Assembly (NCBI GenBank): GCA_963792415.1
Contig: CAWBVY010000004.1
Coordinates: forward strand, 512,001 to 576,000
Direction: 5' to 3'
Source: Candidatus Deferrimicrobiaceae bacterium
GTDB lineage: Bacteria > Desulfobacterota > Deferrimicrobia > Deferrimicrobiales > Deferrimicrobiaceae
DNA length: 64,000 bases
Position numbers and translations under genes: made by a program. Under the pieces are notes generated by a model that ran no database searches, was not told the DNA's origin, and was given only the letters and a program-made list of their open reading frames with translations. This document shows, piece by piece, positions 1-15,508 of this stretch (position 1 is its first letter; every line of letters starts with the position of its first letter).

Positions 1-839
1 CGATGCTGCGACAGCGCGGCATCGACATCCCGGAGGACACCTGGTTCGTGGCTGCCCAGCACAATACGACCACCGATGAAGTGGAAATCCTGGACGAGCG
101 CGACTGCCCGGAGACGCACGCGGAGGATCTCCGGTGGCTTCGCCGGGACCTTGCCGAGGCGGGCGCCCGCCAGGCGCAGGAGCGTTGCGGGCGGCTGCCG
201 GGGTCGCCGGCCGGCCTCTCGCCGCGCGCCGCGCTTCGGCACGTGGAGCGCCGCAGCGCCGACCTCGCCCAGGTGCGCCCGGAGTGGGGCCTGTCGAGCA
301 ACGCCGCGTTCATCGTCGCCCACCGGTCGCTCACCCGGGAGCTCAACCTCGGCGGTCGGGTGTTCCTGCACTCCTACGACTGGGAGCGGGACACGATAGG
401 GAGCGTGCTTGACGTGATCATGACCGCCCCCCTCATCGTCGGTGAGTGGATCAACATGGAGCACTACTTCTCCACCGTGGACAACAAGGTGTACGGAAGC
501 GACAGCAAGGTGATCCACAACGTCGTGGGAGGGTTCGGGGTCGTGCTGGGCAGTGGAGGCGACCTGCAGACGGGGTTGCCGCGCCAGACGGTGATGGCGG
601 GGGAGGCGCGTTACCACGATCCCCTGCGCCTGTTGGCGGTGATCGAGGCGCCGACGGACCGGATCGGGGAGATCATCCGGCGCCACCGCATCCTGCAGCA
701 CCTGTTCGACAATGGATGGGTCAACCTGGTCGCGCTCGACCCGCGGACCGGTACCTTCCATCGCTACCTGCCAGGTTTCGCCTGGGAACGCCTCGCCGTC
801 GAACCGGGCCGCGAGCGCCGCGACGGGATACGAAAATGA
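1..839 (+). CDS. dabA: DabA/DUF2309 inorganic carbon transporter subunit, copy 1 (5'-truncated by window edge)
   Basis: Motifs HNTTTDEV, RPEWGL, RVFLHSYDW, WINMEHYFSTVDN..YGSDSKVIHNVVG, H.PLRL; nearly identical to the C-terminus of copy 2. Confidence 0.9.
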   Translation, partial: MLRQRGIDIPEDTWFVAAQHNTTTDEVEILDERDCPETHAEDLRWLRRDLAEAGARQAQERCGRLPGSPAGLSPRAALRHVERRSADLAQVRPEWGLSSNAAFIVAHRSLTRELNLGGRVFLHSYDWERDTIGSVLDVIMTAPLIVGEWINMEHYFSTVDNKVYGSDSKVIHNVVGGFGVVLGSGGDLQTGLPRQTVMAGEARYHDPLRLLAVIEAPTDRIGEIIRRHRILQHLFDNGWVNLVALDPRTGTFHRYLPGFAWERLAVEPGRERRDGIRK

Positions 840-2413
840 CGTGGATGCCTGCGTACCTGTCGTCGAACCTGCTGACGGTCCTGATCTTCTTCCCGCTGGC
901 CGGGGCGCTGCTGCTCTTCTTCCTGCCGAAGGGAAACGTGCGCCTGATCCGGAACGCGACCCTGCTTGTCACCCTGGCGGAGTTCCTCCTCTCGCTGGTC
1001 ATCGTCTTCCGGTTCGACGACGCAACCGCGTCGATGCAGTTCGTCGAGCGGGCTTCCTGGATCCCCGGCTACGGGATCGAGTACCACGTGGGCGTCGACG
1101 GGATCTCGCTCTGGCTCGTCATGCTCACGACGTTCCTCATGCCCATCGTGGTCCTCTCCACCTACCAGGCGGTTGAGAAGCACGTGAAGGAGTTCCTGAT
1201 CTTCACACTGGTTCTGGAGGTCGGGATGGTGGGGGTGTTCCTTGCGATCGACCTCTTCCTCTTCTACATCTTCTGGGAACTGGTGCTCGTCCCGATGTAC
1301 TTCCTGATCGGGGTGTGGGGTAGCGACCGGCGCATCTACTCGGCGATCAAGTTCTTCCTGTACACGTTCGCGGGCTCGGTGCTGATGCTCGTCGCGATCA
1401 TCGCGCTCTATTTCCACCACCACGAGGTCACGGGGGTCTACACGACGAACCTGCTCCGCCTGTATGAGCTGTCGATTCCGGTGCAGCTGCAGTTCTGGAT
1501 GTTCGCCGCCTTCGCGCTGGCGTTCGCGGTCAAGGTCCCGATGTTCCCGTTCCACACGTGGCTCCCCGACGCCCACGTGGACGCACCCACGTCGGGCTCG
1601 GTGATCCTCGCGGCGTTATTGCTCAAGATGGGGACCTACGGGTTCCTCCGGTTCGCGATGCCTCTGTTTCCGGTCGCCGCTTTCGATCTGATGCCGTTGA
1701 TCGGTGCGCTTGCGGTCGTCGGGATCATCTACGGGGCGCTGGTCGCGATGGCCCAGAAGGACATGAAGAAGCTCGTCGCCTACTCCTCGGTCTCCCACCT
1801 CGGGTTCGTCATGCTGGGGCTGTTCGCCTTCAACATCCAGGGGATACAGGGCGGAATCCTCCAGATGGTCAACCACGGCATCTCGACGGGGGCCCTCTTC
1901 CTCCTCGTCGGCATCCTCTACGAGAGGCGCCACACCCGCCTCGTTTCGGAGTACGGAGGGCTGTTCAAGGTCATCCCCGTGTACGCGACGGTCTTCATGA
2001 TCGTGGCGCTCTCCTCGCTGGGTCTGCCCGGCCTGAACAACTTCGCCGGCGAGTTCCTGATCCTCATGGGCGCGTTCCAGTCGATGAGGGGGCTCACGGT
2101 CGCGGCCACCGTCGGGATCTTCTTCGCGGCCGTATACATGCTCTGGATGTTCCAGCGCGTGATGTTCGGCGCGGTGGGCAACGAGAAGAACCGGCATCTT
2201 CCGGACATGAATGCGCGCGAGGTGGCCTGCATGCTTCCTCTCCTTCTGTTCGTCTTCTGGATCGGGGTATACCCCCAGACGTTCCTCCGGAAGATGGAAG
2301 CCTCGGTGTCGGCTGCCGTGACGCGGATGGAGGGGAAGCGACAGGCGTTGCTCATGGGACGGCCGCCCGGGGAGACCCTGCTCGCACGCTATTTCGATCG
2401 TGCCCGTGATTGA
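836..2413 (+). CDS. NuoM/ND4-like proton-translocating antiporter subunit, copy 1
   Basis: ATG 836 overlaps the dabA stop (ATGA); motifs GVDGISL, FYIFWE, KVPMFPFHTWLPDAH, LLKMGTYG, AYSSVSH, FAGEF. Confidence 0.92.
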   Translation: MTWMPAYLSSNLLTVLIFFPLAGALLLFFLPKGNVRLIRNATLLVTLAEFLLSLVIVFRFDDATASMQFVERASWIPGYGIEYHVGVDGISLWLVMLTTFLMPIVVLSTYQAVEKHVKEFLIFTLVLEVGMVGVFLAIDLFLFYIFWELVLVPMYFLIGVWGSDRRIYSAIKFFLYTFAGSVLMLVAIIALYFHHHEVTGVYTTNLLRLYELSIPVQLQFWMFAAFALAFAVKVPMFPFHTWLPDAHVDAPTSGSVILAALLLKMGTYGFLRFAMPLFPVAAFDLMPLIGALAVVGIIYGALVAMAQKDMKKLVAYSSVSHLGFVMLGLFAFNIQGIQGGILQMVNHGISTGALFLLVGILYERRHTRLVSEYGGLFKVIPVYATVFMIVALSSLGLPGLNNFAGEFLILMGAFQSMRGLTVAATVGIFFAAVYMLWMFQRVMFGAVGNEKNRHLPDMNAREVACMLPLLLFVFWIGVYPQTFLRKMEASVSAAVTRMEGKRQALLMGRPPGETLLARYFDRARD

Positions 2414-2491
2414 AACGGGCCGGCCGTTCGGGTATATGGCTTTTTCCATGTTCCTTCGCCGTGACTCCAGACGTCGATCGGGGGTGATGAG

Positions 2492-2836
2492 ATGAGCGAC
2501 ACAAGCCTGGTATTGATGAAGAGGGTCCAGATCATCGTCAAGGGCGAGGACCTGCACCTTGTCGAGGAGCTTCTCGTGAAAGCGCGCGTTTCCGGATTCA
2601 CCATCGTGCCGAACGTATCGGGCAGGGGGCATCACGGCACCCATGAAGGGCACCTTCTCTTCAACGACATGCACACGCTGGACGTCCTGTTCACCATCGT
2701 CCCGGAGGACCGGGTCGATCCGATCCTCGCCGGCCTCGGGACGCTGTTCGAGCGGCATTCGGGCGTCGTGTTCGTCTCGGATGTCTGGGTCACCCGCAAG
2801 CACTACTTCGAGACGTATGCCAACCCCTCCCGCTGA
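2492..2836 (+). CDS. PII-like regulator (SbtB-like, non-GlnB)
   Basis: 114 aa; MKRVQIIV, GFTIVPNVSGRG, SGVVFVSDV PII-fold pattern; lacks the GlnB Tyr51 T-loop. Confidence 0.8.
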   Translation: MSDTSLVLMKRVQIIVKGEDLHLVEELLVKARVSGFTIVPNVSGRGHHGTHEGHLLFNDMHTLDVLFTIVPEDRVDPILAGLGTLFERHSGVVFVSDVWVTRKHYFETYANPSR

Positions 2837-2859
2837 CGGCGCACGGGACCGGTAGCGGG

Positions 2860-4782
2860 ATGCCACTCGCCTGCCTCGCCGTTCCCGCACTGCCCCTGCT
2901 CGCCTTCCTGGCGATCCTCCTGGGCGGTCACTGGCTTCGCGGCCGCAGTCATGTGGTCGCGCTCGCCGCCGCCGGCGTTTCGTTCGCCCTGTCGGTGGCG
3001 GTGGCAGTCGAGGTCGTCTCGTCGGGTCCGGTCCAGGTGGTTCTGTACACGTGGATCGGGTCCGGATCGTTAGTGGTGCGCCTCGGACTGTACGTGGACC
3101 GCCTGACCGTCGTCATGCTGGTGATGGTGACGACGATCTCGGGAATCGTGCAGGCTTACAGCGTGCGTTACATGGACGGCGACGGCGGCTACTCGAGGTA
3201 CTTCGCCTTCGTCTGCCTGTTCACCGGCTCCATGCTGATGCTGGTGATGAGCGACAACCTCCTGATGATGTTCGTGTTCTGGGAAGCGGTGGGACTGTGC
3301 TCCTACCTCCTGATCGGGTTCACGTACGAGCGGAAGCCGGCGTGCGACGCCGCGGTGAAGGCGTTCTGGGTGAACCGGGTCGGCGACATGGGGTTCCTGC
3401 TGGGGATCCTTCTCGCGTGGACGACGTTCGGGACGCTCGACTCCCTCGCGATCATGCGCGAGGCGGGCCGGCACGCGGGCGCCACCGTCGCGCTCTTCGG
3501 TCAGTACGGGTCGGTGAGCACGCTGACCCTCATCACCATGCTGTTCCTCTGCGGGGCGCTCGCAAAGTCGGCCCAGCTTCCTTTCCACGTGTGGCTGCCT
3601 GACGCGATGGAGGCGCCGACTCCCGTCTCCGCCCTGATCCACGCGGCGACGATGGTGACGGCCGGCGTGTTCCTCATCGCCCGCTTCGCCCCCCTGTTCG
3701 AACTCGCTCCCGTGACGCTCTCCGTCCTCGCGTTCGTCGGCGCGGCGTCGGCGTTCTTCGCGGCCGCGGTCTCGACGGTCCAGACCGACATCAAGCGGGT
3801 CCTGGCGTATTCCACGATGTGCCAGCTGGGGTACATGATGCTGGCCTGCGGTCTCGGGGCCTACGGGCTGGCGATCTTCCACCTGGTCGCCCACGCGGCG
3901 TTCAAGGCCCTGCTGTTCCTGACCGCGGGGATGGCGATCGAGGAGGTCGCCGCGCACGAAGCGCTCATCGAATCCGGGCGATCCGGGCGCTGGCTCCCCG
4001 CCCGCTTCTGGCTCCTGTGGATATCGGGGGTCGCCCTGGCGGCGATGCCGCCCCTGGTTCTTATCGCGGGCGGGAAAGGTCTTTTTCAACTGGTGTCCCC
4101 ATCGGATCACGGCCATCCGGTATTCTGGATCCTGGCATGGGGCACCGCGCTGATGACGGTCGTTTACCTGCTCCGGCTGGTCGGAACCGCCGAGCTCCGG
4201 TCCGGGGTGGACGCCACGCCGATTCGGCTCCTGTCGCCGCGGGCGCTCGGATTCGTGGCCGGGACGGCAGGGGTGGTGGTCCTTGCCTCGGTCTGGTCGC
4301 CTCTCGCCGGATGGGCCTGGTTCGAGCGGTTCATGGCTTCGGCGCTGCCGACCCCGCACCACGGATCCCCGCCTTCCGCGGCGGAAGGGACGCTTGCGCT
4401 GGCCGCCGTGACGGTCGCCGGCCTGACCCTCCTGGCGGCGGCATGGGGGGGGCTGCGCGCGGTGCTGCGGCTGCGGACGGCCGCCGGCCCCGGGTTGTGG
4501 GACAGGTGGAGCGCAACGTTGTACGTGGTCGTGCTGAACCGCGGGTATGTGGACGAGATCTACCGGGCGACGCTGGTGCGACCCGCGCTTTCGCTCGCGA
4601 TGTGGCTGTCCGACTCGTTCGACGCCGGAGTCATCGACCGCGCTGTCGACGGCTTCGGGGCGGCCGTCGCGGGCATGGGGGAGCGGATGCGGGAGATCCA
4701 GAGCGGGCAGTTCCACCATTACGCCATCGCCATGCTTCTCGGGGTCATCCTGCTCCTGGGGTTCTGCCTGGTGGCGGGCTAA
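2860..4782 (+). CDS. NuoL/ND5-like (DabB-related) membrane subunit, copy 1
   Basis: FWEAVGLCSYLLIGF, NRVGD, KSAQLPFHVWLPDAMEAPTPVSALIHAATMV, DIKRVLAYST, HAAFKALLF; C-terminal lateral helix plus last TM. Confidence 0.9.
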   Translation: MPLACLAVPALPLLAFLAILLGGHWLRGRSHVVALAAAGVSFALSVAVAVEVVSSGPVQVVLYTWIGSGSLVVRLGLYVDRLTVVMLVMVTTISGIVQAYSVRYMDGDGGYSRYFAFVCLFTGSMLMLVMSDNLLMMFVFWEAVGLCSYLLIGFTYERKPACDAAVKAFWVNRVGDMGFLLGILLAWTTFGTLDSLAIMREAGRHAGATVALFGQYGSVSTLTLITMLFLCGALAKSAQLPFHVWLPDAMEAPTPVSALIHAATMVTAGVFLIARFAPLFELAPVTLSVLAFVGAASAFFAAAVSTVQTDIKRVLAYSTMCQLGYMMLACGLGAYGLAIFHLVAHAAFKALLFLTAGMAIEEVAAHEALIESGRSGRWLPARFWLLWISGVALAAMPPLVLIAGGKGLFQLVSPSDHGHPVFWILAWGTALMTVVYLLRLVGTAELRSGVDATPIRLLSPRALGFVAGTAGVVVLASVWSPLAGWAWFERFMASALPTPHHGSPPSAAEGTLALAAVTVAGLTLLAAAWGGLRAVLRLRTAAGPGLWDRWSATLYVVVLNRGYVDEIYRATLVRPALSLAMWLSDSFDAGVIDRAVDGFGAAVAGMGERMREIQSGQFHHYAIAMLLGVILLLGFCLVAG

Positions 4783-4873
4783 GGGGAGGATCTTCCCCTT
4801 GACTCGAAGGTTTGCATGTTAAAAGATGTTCGCTGATCGGGTCATGCCGGCTGCTCTTTTCGGGGGAACCACG

Positions 4874-7800
4874 GTGTCCACCAAACGCGTCGAGCAGACA
4901 GGTCCGATCACCGAAGTCGACCGGCAGCGGGTGCTGTCCGCGGTCGCCCTGGCGAGCGAGTCCGTTTCGTCGTTCTGGCCGATGCGGATGTTCGTCCACC
5001 ACAATCCCCTTCACGGCCTCGAACATCTGCCCTTCGACACGGCGGTCCGCAAGTCGAATAGCCTTACCGGCGGACGTGGTTACCTGACAAACGAAGAGTA
5101 CCGCCGCATGTTGGCGAGCGGGCACATAAAAGCCGATGACCTCGCTCGTGCGATCGAACGGCTTGAATTTGCCGGAATCGACGTGCGCAAGGAAGTGGTC
5201 TTCGGTGGGCGCCGGGTCCGGACCCTCGATGTCGTTGCCAGCCATGTCGCCTTCGGGATCGGCGCGCTGGAGCCGGCCGCATTCCGGGCCCGGGTCCGCG
5301 AGCGGGCGCTTCTGCGGCTGTTTCCCGATCTCCCGCCGGACCGCCGCGCCCGGCTGCTTGCCGCCTCGGCATGGAAGACCCCGGAAGAGATCGCATCGGA
5401 GCTTTGGTCGGCCGTTCTTCGCGTCCTGGGAATCAGCGGCCCGGATCCGTTCGCCTTCGACGAACTCGAGGAGGCGGAACTGGAGGTGCGTTTCGAGCGC
5501 GAAGTGCTCGCGGCGACCTCGGGCGAAACAGAGGCCGTGGATGCCGCCGTCGCGTCGGACGGCCTGGAGCTGCTGGCAGCCGACCTCGACCGCGTCGGGG
5601 AGGATATGACCGCGGGGGAGTGGTGCGGCCGGCTGGCGGGCGCCGACATCGTCGGCGTGATCAACAGGGAAATGATCAAATGGTGCTCGGTTTTCCTCGA
5701 TCAGGGGGTGGCGACGTGGGAGGCCCCCGGCAGGGAGAAGGGATTCTACTCCTTCTGGCGGAGCCTTGCAGCGTGGGATTTCTCGGGAAGATTCCTGGGG
5801 ATTCGAGGGTTTCGCCGCATGGTACATCGCCTGCCGGATACGTCCGAGGATGCGCTCATCGGGAGCTTGCGTGCGCTGGGAAATACCGACAAGAGCTGGA
5901 TCGAAACCCTGGGGCGTCACCTTGCCCAGCTGCCCGGTTGGGCGGGATTCGTGAAATGGCGGTCGGAGGCGCACGACTACCATTGGCAACGGCGGCACCC
6001 CATCGATCTGGTCGATTATCTCGCGGTGCGGATGTTCTACGAACGTCACCTTGTGGATGCGTGCTGCCGGGATATCTGGGAAGTCGAAGGGACGGTGCAC
6101 GCGCTGGCGGAGTATTTCCGTCGCCGTCCCGCCGAGTATTTTGCGCGCCGGCGATCCGCCGAGGAACCGTTCCCGGATTTTACACGCCGGCATCGTCCTG
6201 CCGCGGAGCGAAAACCAGGGAGTGACGACGCCTGGGTCCGGTTCGGCCGCATCCTTTTCCTGGTCCGGGAACACTCTGAACGCGATCCGTGGTCGGCGCA
6301 TGGTCGCGACGCATGGCGGCTGTTCCGTCTGGCCCAGTTCCTGGCGCTCTCGCCTGCGGAGGTCCGGGCGATGTCCGGGGATGACGCACGGGCGTTGCTG
6401 GCGATCCTCGACCGCGTGCCGCCGGACGCGCACGGCCGGATCTGGCTGGAGGCCCACGAGGCGAATTACAGGGACACGCTGCTTTCCCGGCTGGCTGCGA
6501 GACATCGAGACCTCCTCTCGGGGAGCCCCCGGCGTGACTCCCGTCCCGCGTCGCAGTCGGTGTACTGCATCGATGTCCGATCGGAGGGGTTCCGACGGCA
6601 TCTCGAAGCCGTGGGCGACCATGAAACGTTCGGCTTCGCGGGCTTTTTCGGTCGTTCCCATCGGGTTCCGCGGTTTCGGGAAGAAGGAGGATTCGGCGCT
6701 CTGCCCCGTCCTGATCAAGCCGAAGTGCGTGATCGTGGAGCAGCCGGGTGTCGGCGCCGGCCCGGCCGGGAAGCGGGCGTTGCGGGGCATGGCGTGGGAC
6801 GGCATCGTTCATGGAGTCGTCCAGCGGCTCGAGCGTCATTTCGCGGCTTCGTACGCGATGGTCGATCTGCTCGGCGGGGTTTTCGGCCTCTCGCTCGCAG
6901 GCCGTACCTTGGCCCCGGCGGCTACGCGCCGCCTCGCTGCGAAGGTCCACCATCGGGCCGTGCCGAAGGCGGCCACGAGTCTCACGGTGGGCAAGATGAC
7001 CCGGAAGGAAGCCGAGGAACTCGTCGCCGGCCTCGACCCGCCTGAACGCGCCGCCCGCCTCGAGCGGTTGGGGACGCAGGGGTTCACCGGGGAGGAACAG
7101 GCCCTCTACATCGAAACCGGGCTTCGCACGATGGGCCTTACCGGCCCCTTCGCGCGCATGGTGCTCGTCTGCGGCCACCGGAGCACATCGACCAACAATC
7201 CTTATGTGGCCGCCCTGGATTGCGGCGCGTGCGGGGGGAGCCCCAGCGGGCCGAACGCCCGTGTGTTCGCCATGCTGGCGAACAAACCCACGGTCCGGGC
7301 GATGCTGCGACAGCGCGGCATCGACATCCCGGAGGACACCTGGTTCGTGGCTGCCCAGCACAATACGACCACCGATGAAGTGGAAATCCTGGACGAGTGC
7401 GACTGCCCGGAGACGCACGGGGAGGATCTTCAGTGGCTTCGCAGGGACCTCGCCGAGGCGGGCGCCCGCCAGGCGCAGGAGCGTTGCGGGCGGCTGCCGG
7501 GATCGCCGGCCGGCCTCTCGCCGCGCGCCGCGCTTCGGCACGTGGAGCGCCGCAGCGCCGATCTCGCCCAGGTGCTCCCGGAGTGGGGGCTGTCGAGCAA
7601 CGCCGCGTTCATCGTCGCGCACCGGTCTCTCACCCGGGAGCTCAACCTCGGCGGCCGGGTGTTCCTTCAATCCTACGACTGGCGGCGGGACGCCGAGGGT
7701 ACGTCCCTTGAGATCATCATGACCGCCCCCCTCATCGTCGGTGAGTGGATCAACATGGAGCACTACTTCTCCGCCGTGGACAACAAGGTGTACGGAAGCG

Positions 7801-8114
7801 ACAGCAAGGTGGTCCACAACGTCGTGGGAGGGTTCGGGGTCATGCTGGGCAGCGGCGGCGACCTGCGGACGGGGTTGCCGCGGCAGACGGTGATGGCGGG
7901 GGAGGCGCGTTACCACGATCCCCTGCGCCTGTTGGCGGTGATCGAGGCGCCGACGGACCGGATCGGGGAGATCATCAGGCGCCATCACGCGCTTCAGCAC
8001 CTGTTCGACAACGGGTGGGTCAACCTGGTTGCGCTCGATCCGCGGACCGGTTCGTTCCTCCGCTATCGCGAGGGGGGCGGCTGGGAGCCTTCCGAGGTCC
8101 GCGCGGCCTGCTGA
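4874..8114 (+). CDS. dabA: DabA/DUF2309 copy 2, about 1080 aa, +1 frameshift near 6652
   Basis: GTG 4874 after GGGGGA; FWPMRMFVHHNPLHGLE, LPGWAGF, YCIDVRSE, GFAGFFG then VPI in the next frame, CGH.S, LDCGACGG; split over ORFs 4826-7045 and 6051-8114. Confidence 0.9.
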
Positions 8115-8203
8115 GTCGCGTCCGTTCCGGGGCGGCCTTTGCGAAAAGGGGCGGCAGCGGTTACTATGCCGGCAATGAGCGAAAACTGGCGGAGTGCATC
8201 GAC

Positions 8204-9824
8204 ATGACGGTCCCCGCATTCCTGTCGTCGAACCTGTTGACCGTGGTGATCTTCTCCCCGCTTGCCGGCGCCCTGCTGCTCGTTCTTCCTGCCGAAGGGA
8301 AACCTCCGCCTGATCCGGAACGCGGCTTTCCTGACGGCTCTCGCGGAATTCCTCCTCTCGCTGGTCATCGTCTTCCGGTTCGACGACGCGACCGCGTCGA
8401 TGCAGTTCGTCGAGCGGGCTTCCTGGATTCCCGGCTACGGGATCGAGTATCACGTGGGCGTGGACGGGATCTCCCTGTGGCTGGTGATGCTGACCACATT
8501 CCTCCTGCCGATCACGATTCTCTCCACCTACAGGGCGGTCAACAGCCACGTGAAGGAGTTCATGATCTTCCTGCTGCTCATCGAGGTCGGTATGGTGGGA
8601 GTCTTCCTGTCGATCGACCTCTTCCTCTTCTACGTTTTCTGGGAACTGGTGCTCGTCCCCATGTACCTTCTCATCGGCGTGTGGGGGAGCGACCGTTGCG
8701 TCTACTCCGCGATCAAGTTCTTCCTCTACACGTTCGCCGGCTCCGTGCTGATGCTCGTGGCCATCATCGCCCTCTATTTCCACCATTACGATGTCACCGG
8801 GGTCAAAACGACGAGCCTGCTCAGCATGTACGATCTCACCATCCCGGTGAAACTGCAGTTCTGGCTGTTCGCCGCCTTCGCGCTCGCGTTCGCCGTCAAG
8901 GTCCCGATGTTCCCGTTCCACACGTGGCTTCCCGACGCCCACGTGGACGCCCCGACTTCGGGATCCGTGATCCTTGCCGCCTTGCTGCTCAAGATGGGGA
9001 CCTACGGGTTCCTCCGTTTCGCAATGCCGCTTTTCCCCGTGGCCGCTTCGGCCCTGATGCCTGTTGTTGCGGTTCTTGCCGTCATCGGGATCATCTACGG
9101 GGCGCTCGTTGCGACGGTCCAGAAGGACATGAAGAAGCTGGTCGCCTACTCCTCCGTTTCCCACCTCGGATTCGTGATGCTCGGCCTTTTCGCCTTCAAC
9201 AGTCAGGGGATCGAGGGAGGGATCCTCCAGATGGTCAACCACGGCATCTCGACCGGGGCCCTCTTTCTCCTCGTCGGGATCCTCTACGAAAGGCGGCATA
9301 CCCGCCTGATATTGGAATACGGGGGGCTTTTCAAGATCCAGCCGGTGTTCGCCATCGTCTTCCTGATCATAACGCTTTCCTCTCTCGGCCTCCCGGGGCT
9401 CAACAACTTCGTCGGAGAGTTTCTCATCCTGATGGGAGTATTCCGGGTGTCACCGGCATTCGCGCTGCTCGCCTCCTTCGGCGTTGTTCTGTCGGCGGTC
9501 TACATGCTCTGGATGTTCCAGCGGGTGATGTTCGGCCCGGTCACGAACGAGAAGAACCGGAACTTGCCGGACCTGAGCGCGCGGGAGGCGGCCTGCGTGC
9601 TGCCTTTCCTGGTGTTCGTCTTCTGGATCGGATTTTATCCGCAGACGTTCCTCCGGAAGATGACCGCCTCGGTTTCGGCGGTCGTGTCCAGGATCGAAAC
9701 GAAGCGGCAGGCGGCGCTCGGGGATCGCCCTTCGGACGAAACCGTGCTGGCCCGCTACCTCGATTGGAAACCGCAGGGACATCGAGGGGACCACGTGTCC
9801 GTGGCGGCTCCGGGCGGGAGATGA
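8204..9824 (+). CDS. NuoM/ND4-like subunit, copy 2, +1 frameshift near 8282
   Basis: MTVPAFLSSNLL aligns to the copy 1 N-terminus; one extra G relative to copy 1; all NuoM motifs present. Confidence 0.9.
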
Positions 9825-9885
9825 AGACGGTTCGGGGTGCGAAACGGGGGGACCCTGACATTCTCCGGATATGCGGGACAGCACA

Positions 9886-11976
9886 ATGACGCTTGCCTGC
9901 ATCGCGATCCCGCTCCTTCCGTTGCTCGCCTCCGTTGCGATCGTGCTCGGCGGCCCGTGGCTGAAAGGCCGCAGCCACTTCGTGGCGCTTCCCGCCGTGT
10001 GCGGCGCGTTCGCGCTTTCCGTCGCGGCCCTCGTCCACGTGGTCTCCTCGGGGCCGGTGCGGGCGCCGCTTTACGAGTGGATCGACGCCGGGTCGTTTTC
10101 CGTGCGTATCGGCCTGTTGGTCGACCGCCTGACCGTCGTCATGCTCGTGATGGTTACGGCAGTCGCGGGCCTGGTCCAGGCGTACAGCGTGCGCTACATG
10201 CGGGGAGACGACGGGTACGCAAGGTTCTTCGCGTGCGTCTCGCTGTTCACCGGCTCGATGCTGATGCTGGTGATGAGCGACAACCTCCTGACGATGTTCG
10301 TGTTCTGGGAAGCGGTGGGACTGTGCTCCTACCTCCTGATCGGGTTCACGTACGAGCGGAAGCCGGCGTGCGACGCCGCGGTGAAGGCGTTCTGGGTGAA
10401 CCGGATCGGGGACGCGGGGTTCCTGATGGGGATCCTTCTCGCGTGGACGACGTTCGGGACGCTCGACTCCCTCGCGATCATGCGCGATGCGGGCCGGCAC
10501 GCGGGCGACACCGTCGCGCTCTTCGGTCGGTACGGGTCGGTGAACACGCTGACCCTCATCACCATGCTGTTCCTCTGCGGGGCGCTCGCAAAGTCGGCCC
10601 AGCTTCCCTTCCACGTGTGGCTGCCCAACGCGATGGAGGCGCCGACTCCCGTCTCCGCCCTGATCCACGCGGCGACGATGGTGACGGCCGGCGTGTTCCT
10701 CGTCGCCCGCTTCGCCCCCCTGTTCGACCAGGCGCCGGTTACGCGGAATGTCCTTGTCGTCGCAGGTGCGTCTTCTGCGGTGTTCGGTGCCGCTGTTTCC
10801 ATGGTGCAGGCCGACATCAAGCGGGTCCTGGCGTATTCCACGATGAGCCAGCTGGGGTACATGATGCTGGCCTGCGGCCTCGGAGCCTACGGGCTGGCGA
10901 TCTTCCACATGGTCGCCCACGCTGCGTTCAAGTCCCTGCTGTTCCTGACCGCGGGAACCGCGATCGAGGAGGTGGCCGCCCGGCACGATTTCCCGGCGCC
11001 CGTTCGCTCCGCCGGCTGGTTGCCCGCCCGCTTCTGGCTCCTCTGGGGTTCGGCCGTCGCACTGGCGTCGATGCCCCCCCTTGTACTGATCGCGGGCGGG
11101 AAAGGTCTTTTCCAACGGGTGTCCCCATCGGAACACGGGCATCCGGTATTCTGGGCGCTGACCTGGGTCGCGGCGCTGATGACGGTGGTGTACCTGCTTC
11201 GACTGGTAAGGGCCGCAGAGCAGCGATCCGGGCCGGACGCCACGCCGCTTCGTCTCCTGACGCCGAGGGCGTTCGGATATGTCGCGGGGACCGTGGCGGT
11301 GGTGACCATGGTTTCCGTGTGGTCCCCCCTCGCCGGCTGGGCGTGGTTCGAACGCTTCATGGCTTCGGCGCTCCCCTCCCCGTCGCCAGGCGCTCCGGTC
11401 GCCTCCGCGGAAGGGGCGCTGTCCCTCGCGATCATGACGGCCATGGGCGTGACGCTTTCGGCCGCGGTGTTCGGATTCCTTCATGCGGCCTTGCGAAGGC
11501 GCGCGCCTGCGGCGCCCGGCCCGTGGGATCGATGGAGTGCCATGCTCTATGTCGTTGTGCTGAACCGCGGATACGTGGACGAGGTCTATCAGGCGGCCAT
11601 TGTCCGCCCCGTGCTGGGGATCGCGAAATGGCTTTCGGAGTCGGTCGACGTCGAAATCATCGACCGTTCCGTCGAAGGCATCGGCGCGGTTTTGGAAAAC
11701 GTCGGGAGGTGGCTGTCGACGTGCATCGAGGGAGGCATCGACCGTGGTTTCGAAGGCTTCAGCGCGGTTTTTGAAGGCGTCGGGAAGTGGCTGTCGACGT
11801 GTATAGAGGGAGGAGTCATCGACCGGGCCGTCGACGGATTCGGGGCGGCCGTCGCGGGCATGGGAGAGCGGATGCGGCGGATGCAGAGCGGGCAGTTCCA
11901 CCATTACGCCATCGTCGCGCTCCTCGGCGTCATCCTGCTGCTGGGGGTGTGCCTCGCGGCGGTAGTCGCCGGTTGA
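9886..11976 (+). CDS. NuoL/ND5-like subunit, copy 2, with extended lateral helix
   Basis: Paralog of 2860-4782 with a 53-aa repeat insertion at 11656-11814. Confidence 0.9.
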   Translation: MTLACIAIPLLPLLASVAIVLGGPWLKGRSHFVALPAVCGAFALSVAALVHVVSSGPVRAPLYEWIDAGSFSVRIGLLVDRLTVVMLVMVTAVAGLVQAYSVRYMRGDDGYARFFACVSLFTGSMLMLVMSDNLLTMFVFWEAVGLCSYLLIGFTYERKPACDAAVKAFWVNRIGDAGFLMGILLAWTTFGTLDSLAIMRDAGRHAGDTVALFGRYGSVNTLTLITMLFLCGALAKSAQLPFHVWLPNAMEAPTPVSALIHAATMVTAGVFLVARFAPLFDQAPVTRNVLVVAGASSAVFGAAVSMVQADIKRVLAYSTMSQLGYMMLACGLGAYGLAIFHMVAHAAFKSLLFLTAGTAIEEVAARHDFPAPVRSAGWLPARFWLLWGSAVALASMPPLVLIAGGKGLFQRVSPSEHGHPVFWALTWVAALMTVVYLLRLVRAAEQRSGPDATPLRLLTPRAFGYVAGTVAVVTMVSVWSPLAGWAWFERFMASALPSPSPGAPVASAEGALSLAIMTAMGVTLSAAVFGFLHAALRRRAPAAPGPWDRWSAMLYVVVLNRGYVDEVYQAAIVRPVLGIAKWLSESVDVEIIDRSVEGIGAVLENVGRWLSTCIEGGIDRGFEGFSAVFEGVGKWLSTCIEGGVIDRAVDGFGAAVAGMGERMRRMQSGQFHHYAIVALLGVILLLGVCLAAVVAG
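11656..11814 (+). repeat. In-frame tandem repeat (81 + 78 bp) in the NuoL-like lateral helix
   Basis: IIDRSVEGIGAVLENVGRWLSTCIEGG / IDRGFEGFSAVFEGVGKWLSTCIEGG preceding VIDRAVDGFGA. Confidence 0.9.
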
Positions 11977-12144
11977 CCCCCCCAAAAAATCCTCAGGGCC
12001 TGATCCGCAAGGCAATAAAAGAGAACCTCCTGTCGCCGGGGGGACCGGCGCGACTCCCGCCATCCCCAACGCTGCGAAAACGTAACCGTAGTTTCGTCCA
12101 GGGGACTTCGTCCCGAGGTGGTCGGCCGTGATCGGCCGGGAGGG

Positions 12145-12176
12145 AAAAAAAGCCGCCGGGGATTTCCCCCGGCGGC
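12145..12176 (-). terminator. Intrinsic terminator of the MFS gene
   Basis: 10-bp stem GCCGCCGGGG/CCCCGGCGGC followed by T7 on the minus strand. Confidence 0.85.
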
Positions 12177-12210
12177 CTTGAAGCGGTTGTACCCCTCTGA
12201 AGACGGTCGA

Positions 12211-13480
12211 CTAGGCGTCGTGCGACGGCTTCTTGAGGATGAGCACCAGGATGATCCCGAGGACGCACATGCCCGACAGGGTGAAGTAGGTCTGGTTGTA
12301 CCCGGCGGCGATGTCTCCCGCCTTCTTCGCCGCGTCGACGATGCCGGCGAAGTACCCCGGGACGACGAACCCGCAGATTCCCCACGCCGTGAAGACGGTG
12401 CCGTAGTTGGCGCCCACGTTCTTCGGGCCGTAGAAGTCGGCCGTGAACGACGGCATCATCGCCAGGTAGCCGCCGTACGAGAAGCCGACCAGGCACAGGC
12501 CGGCAAGGGCCTGCACGAAGTTGGTGGTGTTCCGGAGCAGGAAGAGGCAGGCGACGATGTAGACGACGAACATGGCGACCGTCGTCGGCTTTCCGCCCGA
12601 TCTTGTCGGAGGTCGCGCCCCACGCGAGGCGGCCGACCCCGTTGAACGCGCTCATCAACCCGAGGGCCGCGGCCGCGGACATGATGGCGGTGCCCGCCGC
12701 CATGCCCTTCATCACCGGGACTGCCTGGCCGATGGAGACGATCCCGACGCTGGTGCCGAGGAAGTAGATGAACCACAGGCAGTAGAACTGCCACGTCTTG
12801 ACCATCTCGCCCGTGGTGAACTCCGCCTTCTGCACCACGCCGGCGGCGCTGGTGGCCGCGGCGGGAGGAGTCCACCCTTCCGGCTTGTAGCCGGCGGGCG
12901 GGACGTCGTAGATCCGGGCGGCGCCGACGACGCAGACCAGCATGATGACGCCGAGGATGCCGAAGGTCCGGGGAACGGTGGTCGACCACATCGCCGCATC
13001 GGGACCGAGGAGGGCCGAGATCAACGGCGCGAAGATCATCGAGCCCGCCCCGAAGCCGAGGACCGCGAGGCCGACGATCGTCCCGCGCTTGTCGGGGAAC
13101 CACTTCACGCAGGTGGCGATCGGGGTGACGTAGGCGAACCCGACGCCGAGGCCCCCGATGATCCCGTAGGCGAAATTGAGGCCCATCGGGTTCTGCCACA
13201 TGAGGGCCGAAAGGAAGCAGCCGGCGGCCAGCAGGCCGCCGCCGACCGAGCCGACGAGTTTCGGCCCCTTCTTGTCCTGCCAGAACCCGGCGATGATCAT
13301 CGCGACGGTGAAGAAGAGCAGCGAGTAGCGGTACGGCGCGATCGAGGTCTTCCCGTCCCAACCGTTCGTTTTCTCCAGAACCGGCCGGAACACCGACCAG
13401 GAGTACAACGCACCCAAGCACAGCTGCATTACCAAGGCGGCGTAGACGAACTTCCAACGATTCACCTTCTCAGCCATCAT
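12211..13480 (-). CDS. OFA-family (OxlT/YhjX-like) MFS transporter, frameshift near 12591
   Basis: LGALYSWSVF, KWFPDKRG, NGVGRLAWGATSDKIGR, ADFYGPKNVGANYG; split over two frames. Confidence 0.88.
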
Positions 13481-13619
13481 TCCCCTCCTTCTTGATATGA
13501 TCCCTCATTGAATCCAATCGAACTCGCGAACTCGGTCCCCTCAATCACGGTCGATACGTCCCGGGTCCACCTCCTTTCGGGGAGAAGCGGTTTTACCCTG
13601 TAAAATAAGATTTCCCTAT

Positions 13620-14380: not shown

Positions 14381-15508
14381 TTGAGCGATCGGGAGAAGAT
14401 CTTCCTGACCCACCTGTCGTCCTGCGCCGGTTGAGCGTCCAAGCTGGGGCAGGGGGTCCTTGCCCGCGTGCTGTCCGCCTTGCCGCCGCCCGACGATCCG
14501 CGCGTGCTCGTAGGCACCTCCCACGCCGACGACGCGGGGGTCTTTCGCCTTTCCGCGGAGGAGGCCCTCATCGGCACCCTCGACTTCTTCACGCCGATCG
14601 TCGACGACCCGTACCTGTACGGTTCGATCGCCGCCGCCAACTCCCTGAGCGACGTGTACGCGATGGGGGGGGAGCCGCTCTTCGCGCTCGCCATCGCCGC
14701 CTTCCCCGAGGACGAGAAGATCCTGCCGTACCTCGCGGACGTCATGGCCGGCGCCGCCGGCAAGGCGAAGGAGGCCGGCGTCTGCATCATCGGGGGGCAC
14801 ACGGTGAAGGACAAGGAGCCGAAGTTCGGCCTCTCGGTCACCGGCCGGGTCCACCCCGACCGGATGTGGCACAACCGGGGGGCGAAGCCCGGCGACGCGA
14901 TCGTCCTGACGAAGCCCCTGGGGACCGGCATTGCCACCTCGGCGATCAAGTGGGGGATCTGCCCGAAAGGGACGGAAGAGGCGGTGATCGCCTCGATGGC
15001 CCGGCTGAACGCGTATGCTTCGAAAGCGGGGCGCGAGGTCGGGATCTCCACGGCCACCGACGTGACCGGGTTCGGGTTGATCGGGCACCTGCTGGAGGTG
15101 GTCGAGGGGAGCGGGATCGCCGCGGAGATCCGCCTTGCGGACGTCCCGGTCTTCCACGGGGTGCGGGAACTCATGCGGAGGAAGCGCGTGGACGCCCTGA
15201 CCGGCAGGTGGCGGTTTCCGGGATCGGAATGGATCCACGCGACGTTCGGCGGGCACCCGATCCCCGGGGGGACGCACCAGAATATAACGCACCAGCTCGG
15301 GCGCGTCCGCTTCCCGCCCATGCTGCCGCCGGAGGAGGCGTTTCTCCTGTCCGACCCGCAGACCTCCGGCGGGCTCCTGATGTTCGTCCCCGAGGCTTCG
15401 GCCGAGGCGCTCTGCGACGCCTTGCGCTCCGCGGGCGAGGGCGCGTGGCGGATCGGCCGGACGCTCGAGGCGGGCGACCTCCCGATGCAGCGGATCACGG
15501 TAATCTAG
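14381..15508 (+). CDS. selD: Selenide,water dikinase containing selenocysteine (UGA 14432-14434)
   Basis: TTG start; LTHLSSCAG-U-ASKL; DDAGV, DFFTPIVDDP, ANSLSDVYAMGG, GGHT, TDVTGFGL, DPQTSGGLL. Confidence 0.93.
14447..14465 (+). promoter_or_regulatory. Candidate bacterial SECIS hairpin
   Basis: GGGCAGGG-GGT-CCTTGCCC stem-loop with G-containing loop starting 13 nt after the UGA. Confidence 0.6.

Follow-up and report, generated by a model that had tools for sequence, protein, structure and literature searches.

The present analysis concerns a gene cluster in the genome of Candidatus Deferrimicrobiaceae bacterium (2.84 Mb in 11 contigs, approximately 66% G+C), situated at the start of a 64,000-nucleotide stretch that spans positions 512,001 to 576,000 of contig CAWBVY010000004.1 (G000:C4:512001-576000; hereafter the window). 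Seven co-oriented genes on the forward strand, dabA1-nuoM1-PII-nuoL1-dabA2-nuoM2-nuoL2, would encode two tandem units, each with a NuoM-NuoL membrane pair in place of the single DabB of related systems. Employing a combined approach of profile searches, phylogeny, comparative genomics and structure prediction, we consider it probable (roughly 0.6) that this island specifies a vectorial carbonic anhydrase of the DAB type working with an active NuoM-NuoL pair, in which NuoM takes the position held by DabC in DAB1. The gene content and order proposed in the initial annotation were borne out by Pfam matches (PF10070 for DabA, PF00361 with NuoM or NuoL N-terminal domains, and P-II). The ATGA overlap of dabA1 and nuoM1 at 836-839 is likewise present, and the spacers along the seven genes amount to -4, 78, 23, 43, 89 and 46 bases.

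As described in the available text of the 2026 cryo-EM study, DAB1 (DabA-DabB-DabC) of Thermocrinis albus and Halothiobacillus neapolitanus has in common with the island a DabA with a buried beta-carbonic-anhydrase-like zinc site and a membrane-inserting hairpin, a NuoL-related proton subunit and a third membrane subunit at the position of NuoM in complex I. According to the same text, DabC aligns with the NuoM helices that adjoin NuoL and, although its proton path is replaced by hydrophobic residues, DabC is required for DAB1 function. In the island, in contrast, a NuoM of full length, proton-path residues included, is the third subunit, the NuoL-type subunit carries the glutamate of transmembrane helix 5 (TM5), R175 and a full-length lateral-helix tail, and the gene order is dabA-nuoM-PII-nuoL.

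Both island NuoM copies contain the charged-axis motifs FWE, KVP, LLK and GEF that had originally been noted, and NuoM1, NuoM2 and their orthologues retain all eight proton-path residues (E144, K234, H248, K265, H322, H348, R369 and E407), the sole exception being L007, which has Glu at 265. We take these positions, and those NuoL positions considered below other than E144, R175, D178, K229, K399 and D400, to be the relevant ones, mapped on the E. coli sequences. In ten classical loci a DabC-like gene or fused domain lies between dabB and dabA; it is 27-29% identical to the C-terminal half of NuoM, and seven of seven examined proton-path positions are hydrophobic in all ten. Since these residues are kept in NuoM and lost in the DabC-like proteins, the comparison suggests that the island NuoM is the active counterpart of DabC.

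Prediction of a complex of NuoL1 (residues 1-470) and NuoM1, a pair modelled with DabA outside it, gave a score of 0.75 as against 0.00 for the best of three controls. Among solved complexes 58 of 80 attain this mark, and among mismatched pairs 2 of 110; since the alignments were self-made, these counts offer only a rough calibration. Agreement between the runs extends to at least 95% of contacts, the partner has a predicted local distance difference test (pLDDT) value of at least 82, and the predicted interface joins NuoL1 135-188, which includes E142, to NuoM1 375-446, which includes E406. This predicted interface corresponds to the M-to-L arrangement of complex I and is a sign of likeness rather than proof of binding; because the structure of complex I is solved, the pass may reflect mere likeness to that complex.

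The NuoL subunits combine features of DabB and of complex I. For comparison we refer to three kinds of dabA neighbourhood: the window type, the Type A clusters, in which dabA is linked to Mrp-type genes, and the classical dabB-dabA-PII loci (class B), with or without a DabC-like gene. A phylogeny of 53 PF00361 proteins (IQ-TREE quick search, LG+G4, support solely from the Shimodaira-Hasegawa approximate likelihood-ratio test, SH-aLRT) placed NuoL1 and NuoL2, which are 72% identical, in a 21-row clade (99%) that includes Type A NuoL and classical DabB and leaves out E. coli NuoL and the host's own two complex I NuoL proteins; FastTree agrees. Window-type NuoL is sister to DabB inside that clade (support 85). 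The two proteins score 531.2 and 518 bits against the NuoL equivalog NF005141, under its cut-off of 556, and 207.2 (NuoL1) and 194.8 (NuoL2) bits against the NdhF3-type profile TIGR01960, below its cut-off of 588.7.

In TM12, NuoL1 and NuoL2 read Gly-Gly-Lys (Gly-Gly-Glu in L098) where complex I NuoL has Ser-Lys-Asp. The pair Lys399-Asp400 is present in 3/3 complex I NuoL proteins and absent from NuoL1, NuoL2, Type A NuoL and DabB, a statement restricted to an 18-row alignment because columns 399 and 400 are gapped for nearly all rows of the large alignment. Retained in both island proteins, in E. coli numbering, are E144, R175, D178, K229, H254, D303, H334, H338 and K342. Among the 121 NuoL-like genes of the surveyed loci together with NuoL1 and NuoL2, the TM5 glutamate (E144) is kept in 5/6 window-type and 38/38 Type A rows, while 72/74 class-B rows have Q, H, V, Y or I instead; the two class-B rows with E144 are Type A modules within the same loci. 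One of the six window-type rows shows R in this column and may be the split NuoL of L099. The checked positions E144, R175, D178, K229, K399 and D400 follow the available text of the DAB2 structure paper.

The tail beyond E. coli position 470 has a median length of 150 residues in the window type, 201.5 in Type A and 97.5 in class B, and comprises 150 residues in NuoL1 and 206 in NuoL2. An AlphaFold2 model of NuoL1, of moderate confidence (mean pLDDT 68.9), comprises TM15 with helices at 460-493, along the stretch 508-610 and, as the last, at 616-639, and in fold comparisons it is matched best by chain L of complex I over its full length. The traits of DabB (TM5 Glu replaced, a short axial helix, approximately 500-570 amino acids) are thus those of neither NuoL1 nor NuoL2. 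Taken together, the pattern of residues and tails would make NuoL DabB-like at the side where DabA docks and complex-I-like toward its NuoM neighbour, with the clamp helix retained. DabB, beside which no full-length NuoM is encoded, has lost these NuoM-facing features.

Concerning DabA, the zinc-ligand motifs which had been reported for the second copy are found in both: CIDVRSE and LDCGAC in each, and the His motif as CGHGS in DabA1 and CGHRS in DabA2. The zinc-site residues and the finger motif of DabA1 align to chain A of the solved DAB2 structure (PDB 9rd0_A), and both motifs occur in both copies; the Asp of VDLLGG in DabA1 is aligned to Glu444 of H. neapolitanus DabA2. In the available text of the 2026 DAB2 paper Glu444 is reported to be essential, and this finger residue is reported there to substitute for the Lys-Asp pair of NuoL TM12. 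DabA1 has 1113 amino acids as against 870 in the solved chain, and the alignment is good for residues 552-1090 only. In the DabA tree the window-type proteins are sister to DabA of DabB-DabA-PII loci (support 91). DAB2/MpsAB, as far as the available description goes, has in common with the island a PF10070 protein with a PF00361 partner, the zinc ligands, an acidic finger residue and the loss of the TM12 Lys-Asp pair, and is unlike it in having one antiporter-like subunit with a short axial helix and lacking the TM5 Glu.

The seven genes form a discrete island of approximately 14.8 kb. The initial annotation had the cluster continuing upstream of the window, but only the 5' part of dabA1 lies there, preceded by a histone-deacetylase-family gene and by no other gene of the cluster. 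A complete nuo or hyf operon upstream was considered and ruled out, the genes in that direction being of the histone-deacetylase-family, PGA_cap, NlpC/P60 and ABC (ATP-binding cassette)-transport kinds. The downstream neighbour is a major facilitator superfamily transporter gene on the opposite strand. The island, holding these seven genes only, sits between two conserved genes, and in 4/4 cluster-free congeners tested at the site it is absent and the flanks are adjacent (abutting in G011; 232-276 bases apart in G002, G006 and G017), homology with these genomes resuming at window position 12136; it is this adjacency in dabA-free congeners that defines the island as a unit. A copy of the right-border hairpin occurs upstream of dabA1 in the congener G014 (C202:4221-4273; 53 bases, 83%), and the genome's own left-border copy (L004:~15339-15371) is weaker and degenerate (33 bases, 79%, E 0.037). 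Judging by these alignments, a short direct repeat at the borders could mark the mode of insertion or loss.

PF10070 was found in 3/41 genomes searched, namely the host genome and 2/24 congeners. The order dabA-nuoM-PII-nuoL recurs in G014, G005 and seven metagenome loci (L090, L091, L092, L094, L098, L099 and L113) whose DabA proteins are 70-91% identical; L093 and L095 stop at PII and L097 reads nuoL-dabA-nuoM. The order is kept in every close relative extending far enough downstream. The tandem second unit is present in G014, L090, L097, L098 and L099. Ratios of nonsynonymous to synonymous substitution (dN/dS, NG86) are 0.19-0.28 for nuoM1, 0.30-0.36 for nuoL1, 0.22-0.30 for PII and 0.30-0.33 for dabA1; all four measured genes are under purifying selection and nuoM is the most constrained.

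The island NuoM can be traced to the complex I of its own lineage. The genome has two nuo operons on the same contig (C4:~305-331 kb), about 180-205 kb upstream of the island, and identity to the NuoM of operon 2 (C4:~328.1-329.7 kb), which bears the same conserved residues and NCBIfam equivalog as the island NuoM and sits in a nuo operon, is 76% for NuoM1 (residues 118-524) and 73% for NuoM2. In a NuoM tree to which orthologues of 23 relatives were added (IQ-TREE quick search, LG+G4, SH-aLRT support only), the island clade (6 rows, 100) is sister (98) to the genus operon-2 clade (17 rows), and the two are nested within class-level sequences (96), the island branches being longer. This nested sister placement indicates that NuoM was recruited by gene duplication from the complex I of the same lineage.

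As had been stated at the outset, no redox-module gene is nearby, the genome's only Complex1_49kDa matches lying at C4:308872-320180, about 190 kb upstream, and apart from NuoM and NuoL the island has no membrane-arm or redox subunits such as a nuo operon would supply. The suggestion that DabA docks on a complex-I-like arm in the manner of CupA finds no support in the gene content, because the island is self-contained and without small membrane-arm or redox genes. The cyanobacterial module NDH-1MS (CupA, NdhF3, NdhD3) is alike in outline, with a CO2-hydrating protein atop an L-type plus M-type antiporter-like pair, but it belongs to a redox-driven NDH-1. It is named as an analogue in the available text of reviews.

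The PII protein had only 5d4n and 5d4l as PDB sequence matches (E about 2e-24, at E up to 0.01), and shares 42-59% identity with the PII genes located after dabA in the classical loci. The two PDB entries are, we presume, carboxysome-associated, bicarbonate-responsive CPII proteins. Neither a RuBisCO large subunit nor a beta-carbonic anhydrase was found in the host genome, which encodes an acetyl-CoA synthase subunit (CdhC). Its only MnhE match lies on contig C10, so Mrp-type small subunits are missing from the island. That contig holds, at C10:18171-25230, a Mrp-like cluster (mnhE, G, mbhD/E-like, mnhB, mnhC, mrpD-like) in the order of the Type A small subunits, followed by two divergent PF00361 genes and without a dabA link.

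On the basis of these findings the following mode of action may be envisaged. DabA would sit at the cytoplasmic face with its hydrophobic finger hairpin inserted into NuoL on the side of the modified TM12, as in DabB, while NuoM would pack on the opposite, TM5-glutamate side, as in complex I, and would presumably be clamped by the long lateral helix of NuoL. Inward proton flow through both channels would power DabA to hydrate CO2 to bicarbonate in one direction only; if each CO2 is thus paid for with more than a single proton, the bicarbonate gradient could be steeper, or the pump could work at lower CO2 or proton-motive force. The PII protein would probably regulate the first unit. The coupling of DabA to several ion-translocating subunits, already proposed in the initial annotation, is favoured by gene order, by the residues and constraint of NuoM and by the features of NuoL, and the higher stoichiometry which that proposal also contained is something we infer, as are the assembly of the three proteins in one complex, proton conduction by NuoM and the direction of flow. 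A wider reading, which we put forward tentatively and hold to be possible rather than probable, is that DabA caps a redox-free, complex-I-like chain of active channels, the host's NuoM having been copied into a DAB operon to give at least two protons per CO2, that the island forms a class of multi-channel vectorial carbonic anhydrases together with Type A, and that DabC is a degenerate second channel.

Several observations weigh against the active-pair interpretation. The evidence on the system comes from genes and predicted structure. NuoM1 is 76% identical to the host complex I NuoM and scores above the equivalog cut-off, and for these reasons could serve complex I instead. The tail of E. 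coli NuoL reaches across two neighbouring subunits; that of NuoL1 is of the same length and that of NuoL2 is 56 residues longer than NuoL1's, yet there is only one NuoM per unit, and the true assembly may include some further component. A carboxysome-type need for bicarbonate is not evident, given that the RuBisCO large subunit is missing from the host and an acetyl-CoA synthase subunit is present. The second unit has two frameshifts in the present assembly, and the system is dispensable, as only 3/25 genomes of the genus have PF10070.

It is conceivable, though unlikely, that NuoM is a structural brace comparable to DabC and that the working unit is DabA plus NuoL with a single proton path. 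The available DAB1 description lends this some weight, since DabC fills the NuoM position without a proton path and is still needed, and a full NuoM could do likewise. A mere brace would hardly account for the eight proton-path residues kept in NuoM1, NuoM2 and their orthologues (L007 aside) where DabC-like proteins have lost seven in 10/10 loci, for nuoM being the most constrained gene of the cluster, or for a NuoL with the NuoM-facing TM5 Glu that is lost in all 72 true DabB rows. That NuoM and NuoL are spare or conditional complex I subunits, lying beside a two-subunit DAB through the history of the island only, appears very improbable. The sister relation of NuoM1 to the genus operon-2 NuoM (98%), its score above the equivalog cut-off and the disruption of operon-2 nuoM in this assembly by two single-base insertions would fit such a role; neither the tree nor the TM12 motif, however, assigns NuoL1 and NuoL2 to complex I NuoL, all relatives have nuoM within the island and overlapping dabA, and operon-2 nuoM is intact in 20 congeners, the insertions being absent in 4/4 congeners and looking like errors.

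A machine running in reverse or on another ion, in which bicarbonate dehydration or CO2 hydration drives proton or sodium export and so generates a membrane potential, or an L-M pair acting as a cation/proton antiporter gated by DabA and PII, seems improbable. The Wood-Ljungdahl route, apparently the one used by the host, consumes CO2 and not bicarbonate, and the related Type A clusters couple dabA with Mrp-type antiporter subunits. The COGNAT authors, in the available part of their article (PMC5700660), proposed that an exergonic YbcC reaction drives ion export. Against this, the characterised DAB and MpsAB systems, according to the available text of the 2026 structure papers, accumulate inorganic carbon in a manner stopped by uncouplers, and no sequence feature indicating sodium or reversal was found at the island. 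Decay of the second unit or of the whole island, with real frameshifts, is the least credible explanation: it would be in keeping with the interrupted dabA2 and nuoM2 and with the absence of the island from most of the genus, but G014 and L090 have unbroken copies of the two genes, dN/dS is well under 1, and the assembly evidence given below speaks for error. The DAB-type machine with an active NuoM-NuoL pair is the interpretation we retain.

Both single-base frameshifts were overlooked in the initial annotation. Reading of dabA2 requires 4826-~6652 followed by 6651-8114, with one extra base near 6652, and a DNA alignment of nuoM2 with two relatives (L008 and L090) reveals a surplus base near 8285. 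Neither gene is interrupted in the congener G014 or the metagenome contig L090. In contigs from 4/4 public sequencing runs one base at 6652-6654 is left out, the gap having a depth of 5.95 of 5.95 in X2, 8.9 of 8.9 in X6 and 5.19 of 19.2 in X3, and being spread in X1 over three neighbouring positions (4.3 of 10.6, 3 of 14.1 and 3.3 of 30.9), in a table that covers contigs with the gap and says nothing on contigs keeping the base. Operon-2 nuoM (C4:328100-329660) likewise falls into three frames, in this case through two inserted bases, near 328200 and near 328423, that 4/4 congeners lack. As all four insertions lie in paralogous genes they are read as errors, and because relatives and public contigs are without the extra bases, the frameshifts of dabA2 and nuoM2 are probably assembly errors; a programmed frameshift in dabA2 was ruled out in favour of error, the base being absent from the same sources. 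The open frame beside operon-2 nuoM, a 'NuoL' of 834 amino acids, is inflated by those insertions. The histone-deacetylase-family gene (L004:12852-15337; C4:506852-509337) appears as two overlapping long frames of 621 and 762 amino acids in different reading phases, which may be another single-base error of this assembly.

The coordinates of the island are compiled in the following table. A scan for sigma-70-like promoters gave none in window positions 1-13600 and a single weak one at a distance of 22 bases upstream from dabA1, and was not used as evidence.

Table. Genes and right border of the island, in window positions except where contig (C4) coordinates are given. Cut-offs: NDH_I_M (TIGR01972) 263.8, NDH_I_L 407.5 (both NCBIfam), PF10070 25 (Pfam).
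Feature	Position	Strand	Remarks
dabA1, 3' part	1..839	+	ends in the ATGA overlap with nuoM1
dabA1, whole gene	C4:509498-512839 (L004:15498-18839)	+	encodes 1113 amino acids; PF10070 885.8 bits, profile positions 2-747
nuoM1	836..2413	+	525 amino acids; NDH_I_M 626.5 bits; NF004499 595.9 (cut-off 585)
P-II family gene	2492..2836	+	114 amino acids; Pfam P-II 75.1 bits
nuoL1	2860..4782	+	640 amino acids; NDH_I_L 527.7 bits; full-length NuoL-type, DabB-related clade
dabA2	4826..8114	+	two frames; PF10070 profile positions 3-333, then 321-747 (558.7 and 286.8 bits)
nuoM2	8204..9824	+	ATG at 8204; NDH_I_M 608.3 bits (translation from 8262); equivalog NF004499 594 bits (cut-off 585)
nuoL2	9871..11976	+	701 amino acids; NDH_I_L 521.6 bits
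island right border	12136..12188	.	14-pair hairpin at 12149-12179

Neighbourhoods of dabA were surveyed in the best 80 genome loci and the best 79 metagenome loci by similarity to DabA1, so that the counts which follow are not frequencies of PF10070. Type A accounts for 35/80 genome loci (33 plus L013 and L014) and 14/79 metagenome loci, class B for 29 genome loci plus 5 probable and 40 metagenome loci plus 5 probable, and the window type for 1/80 and 10/79; other dabA-nuoL-nuoM forms make up 0/80 and 2/79, and 10/80 and 8/79 were too short or unclear. These other forms are L102:6485-12255, which reads dabA-nuoL-nuoM without Mrp small subunits, and L159:312-9685, which reads nuoM-dabA-nuoL-nuoM-nuoM with very divergent members. 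The DabC-like region of classical loci is fused to DabB in L038:7162-9975, L042:7275-9986 and L119:7365-9998, the fusions having 878-938 amino acids and two PF00361 stretches, and forms separate genes in L061, L066, L088, L130 and L144.

Type A clusters (49 loci, e.g. L011, L015, L047, L104 and L105) combine DabA with an entire Mrp-like membrane module, which includes three antiporter-like subunits, in the order dabA-mnhE-(F)-mnhG-mbhD/E-like-mnhB-mnhC-mrpD-nuoL-nuoM, which was confirmed by Pfam in L020:9962-20737 (Nitrospina sp. 32_T5). Where the sequence extends 8.2 kb or more downstream, 36/37 Type A loci have mrpD, nuoL and nuoM, and the 35 species-representative genome loci bear seven phylum labels. 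Like the island, they link dabA to NuoM and to a full-length NuoL with the TM5 Glu, a long tail and a place in the DAB-associated clade; unlike it, they have Mrp-type small subunits and MrpD and no PII gene, and their NuoM and DabA each fall in clades other than those of the island. No description of the dabA-linked Type A cluster was found in the literature searched.

The initial annotation knew of no characterised DAB with NuoM partners. This holds insofar as literature searches found no experimental study of a dabA-NuoM or dabA-Mrp system and gave only a remark in the COGNAT article of 2017 (PMC5700660), but the association itself had been noted there at the level of genes: in its available part an operon of a NuoL homologue and YbcC is identified, and neighbourhoods in which ybcC is the upstream gene are said often to contain COG1008 (NuoM) and SulP ("clade C"). 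In the available text of Daebeler et al. (PMC7784846), NuoM- and NuoL-like genes are placed after mrpD beside bicA in one Nitrospira, and no link to DabA is drawn. Within the accessible parts of the 2026 DAB1 and DAB2 structure papers NuoM appears only as a comparison for DabB and DabC, and those of a 2024 minireview on inorganic-carbon toolkits leave NuoM-containing variants unmentioned. The island is, on this evidence, a variant within the DAB family whose NuoM association had been glimpsed earlier at gene level.

The first DAB structures date from 2026, and the way in which these systems couple proton flow to one-way CO2 hydration is only now being clarified from them. The island represents a natural variant which adds a second, apparently functional proton channel, and opens tests of the proton-per-CO2 stoichiometry, of the role of the DabC position and of how antiporter-like modules recombine in evolution, here by way of a complex I gene whose duplication can be traced. 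According to the survey, many nitrite oxidisers and other uncultured bacteria join dabA to a still larger Mrp-like membrane module. Multi-channel versions could reach steeper bicarbonate gradients, which would be of relevance to engineered carbon-concentrating mechanisms.

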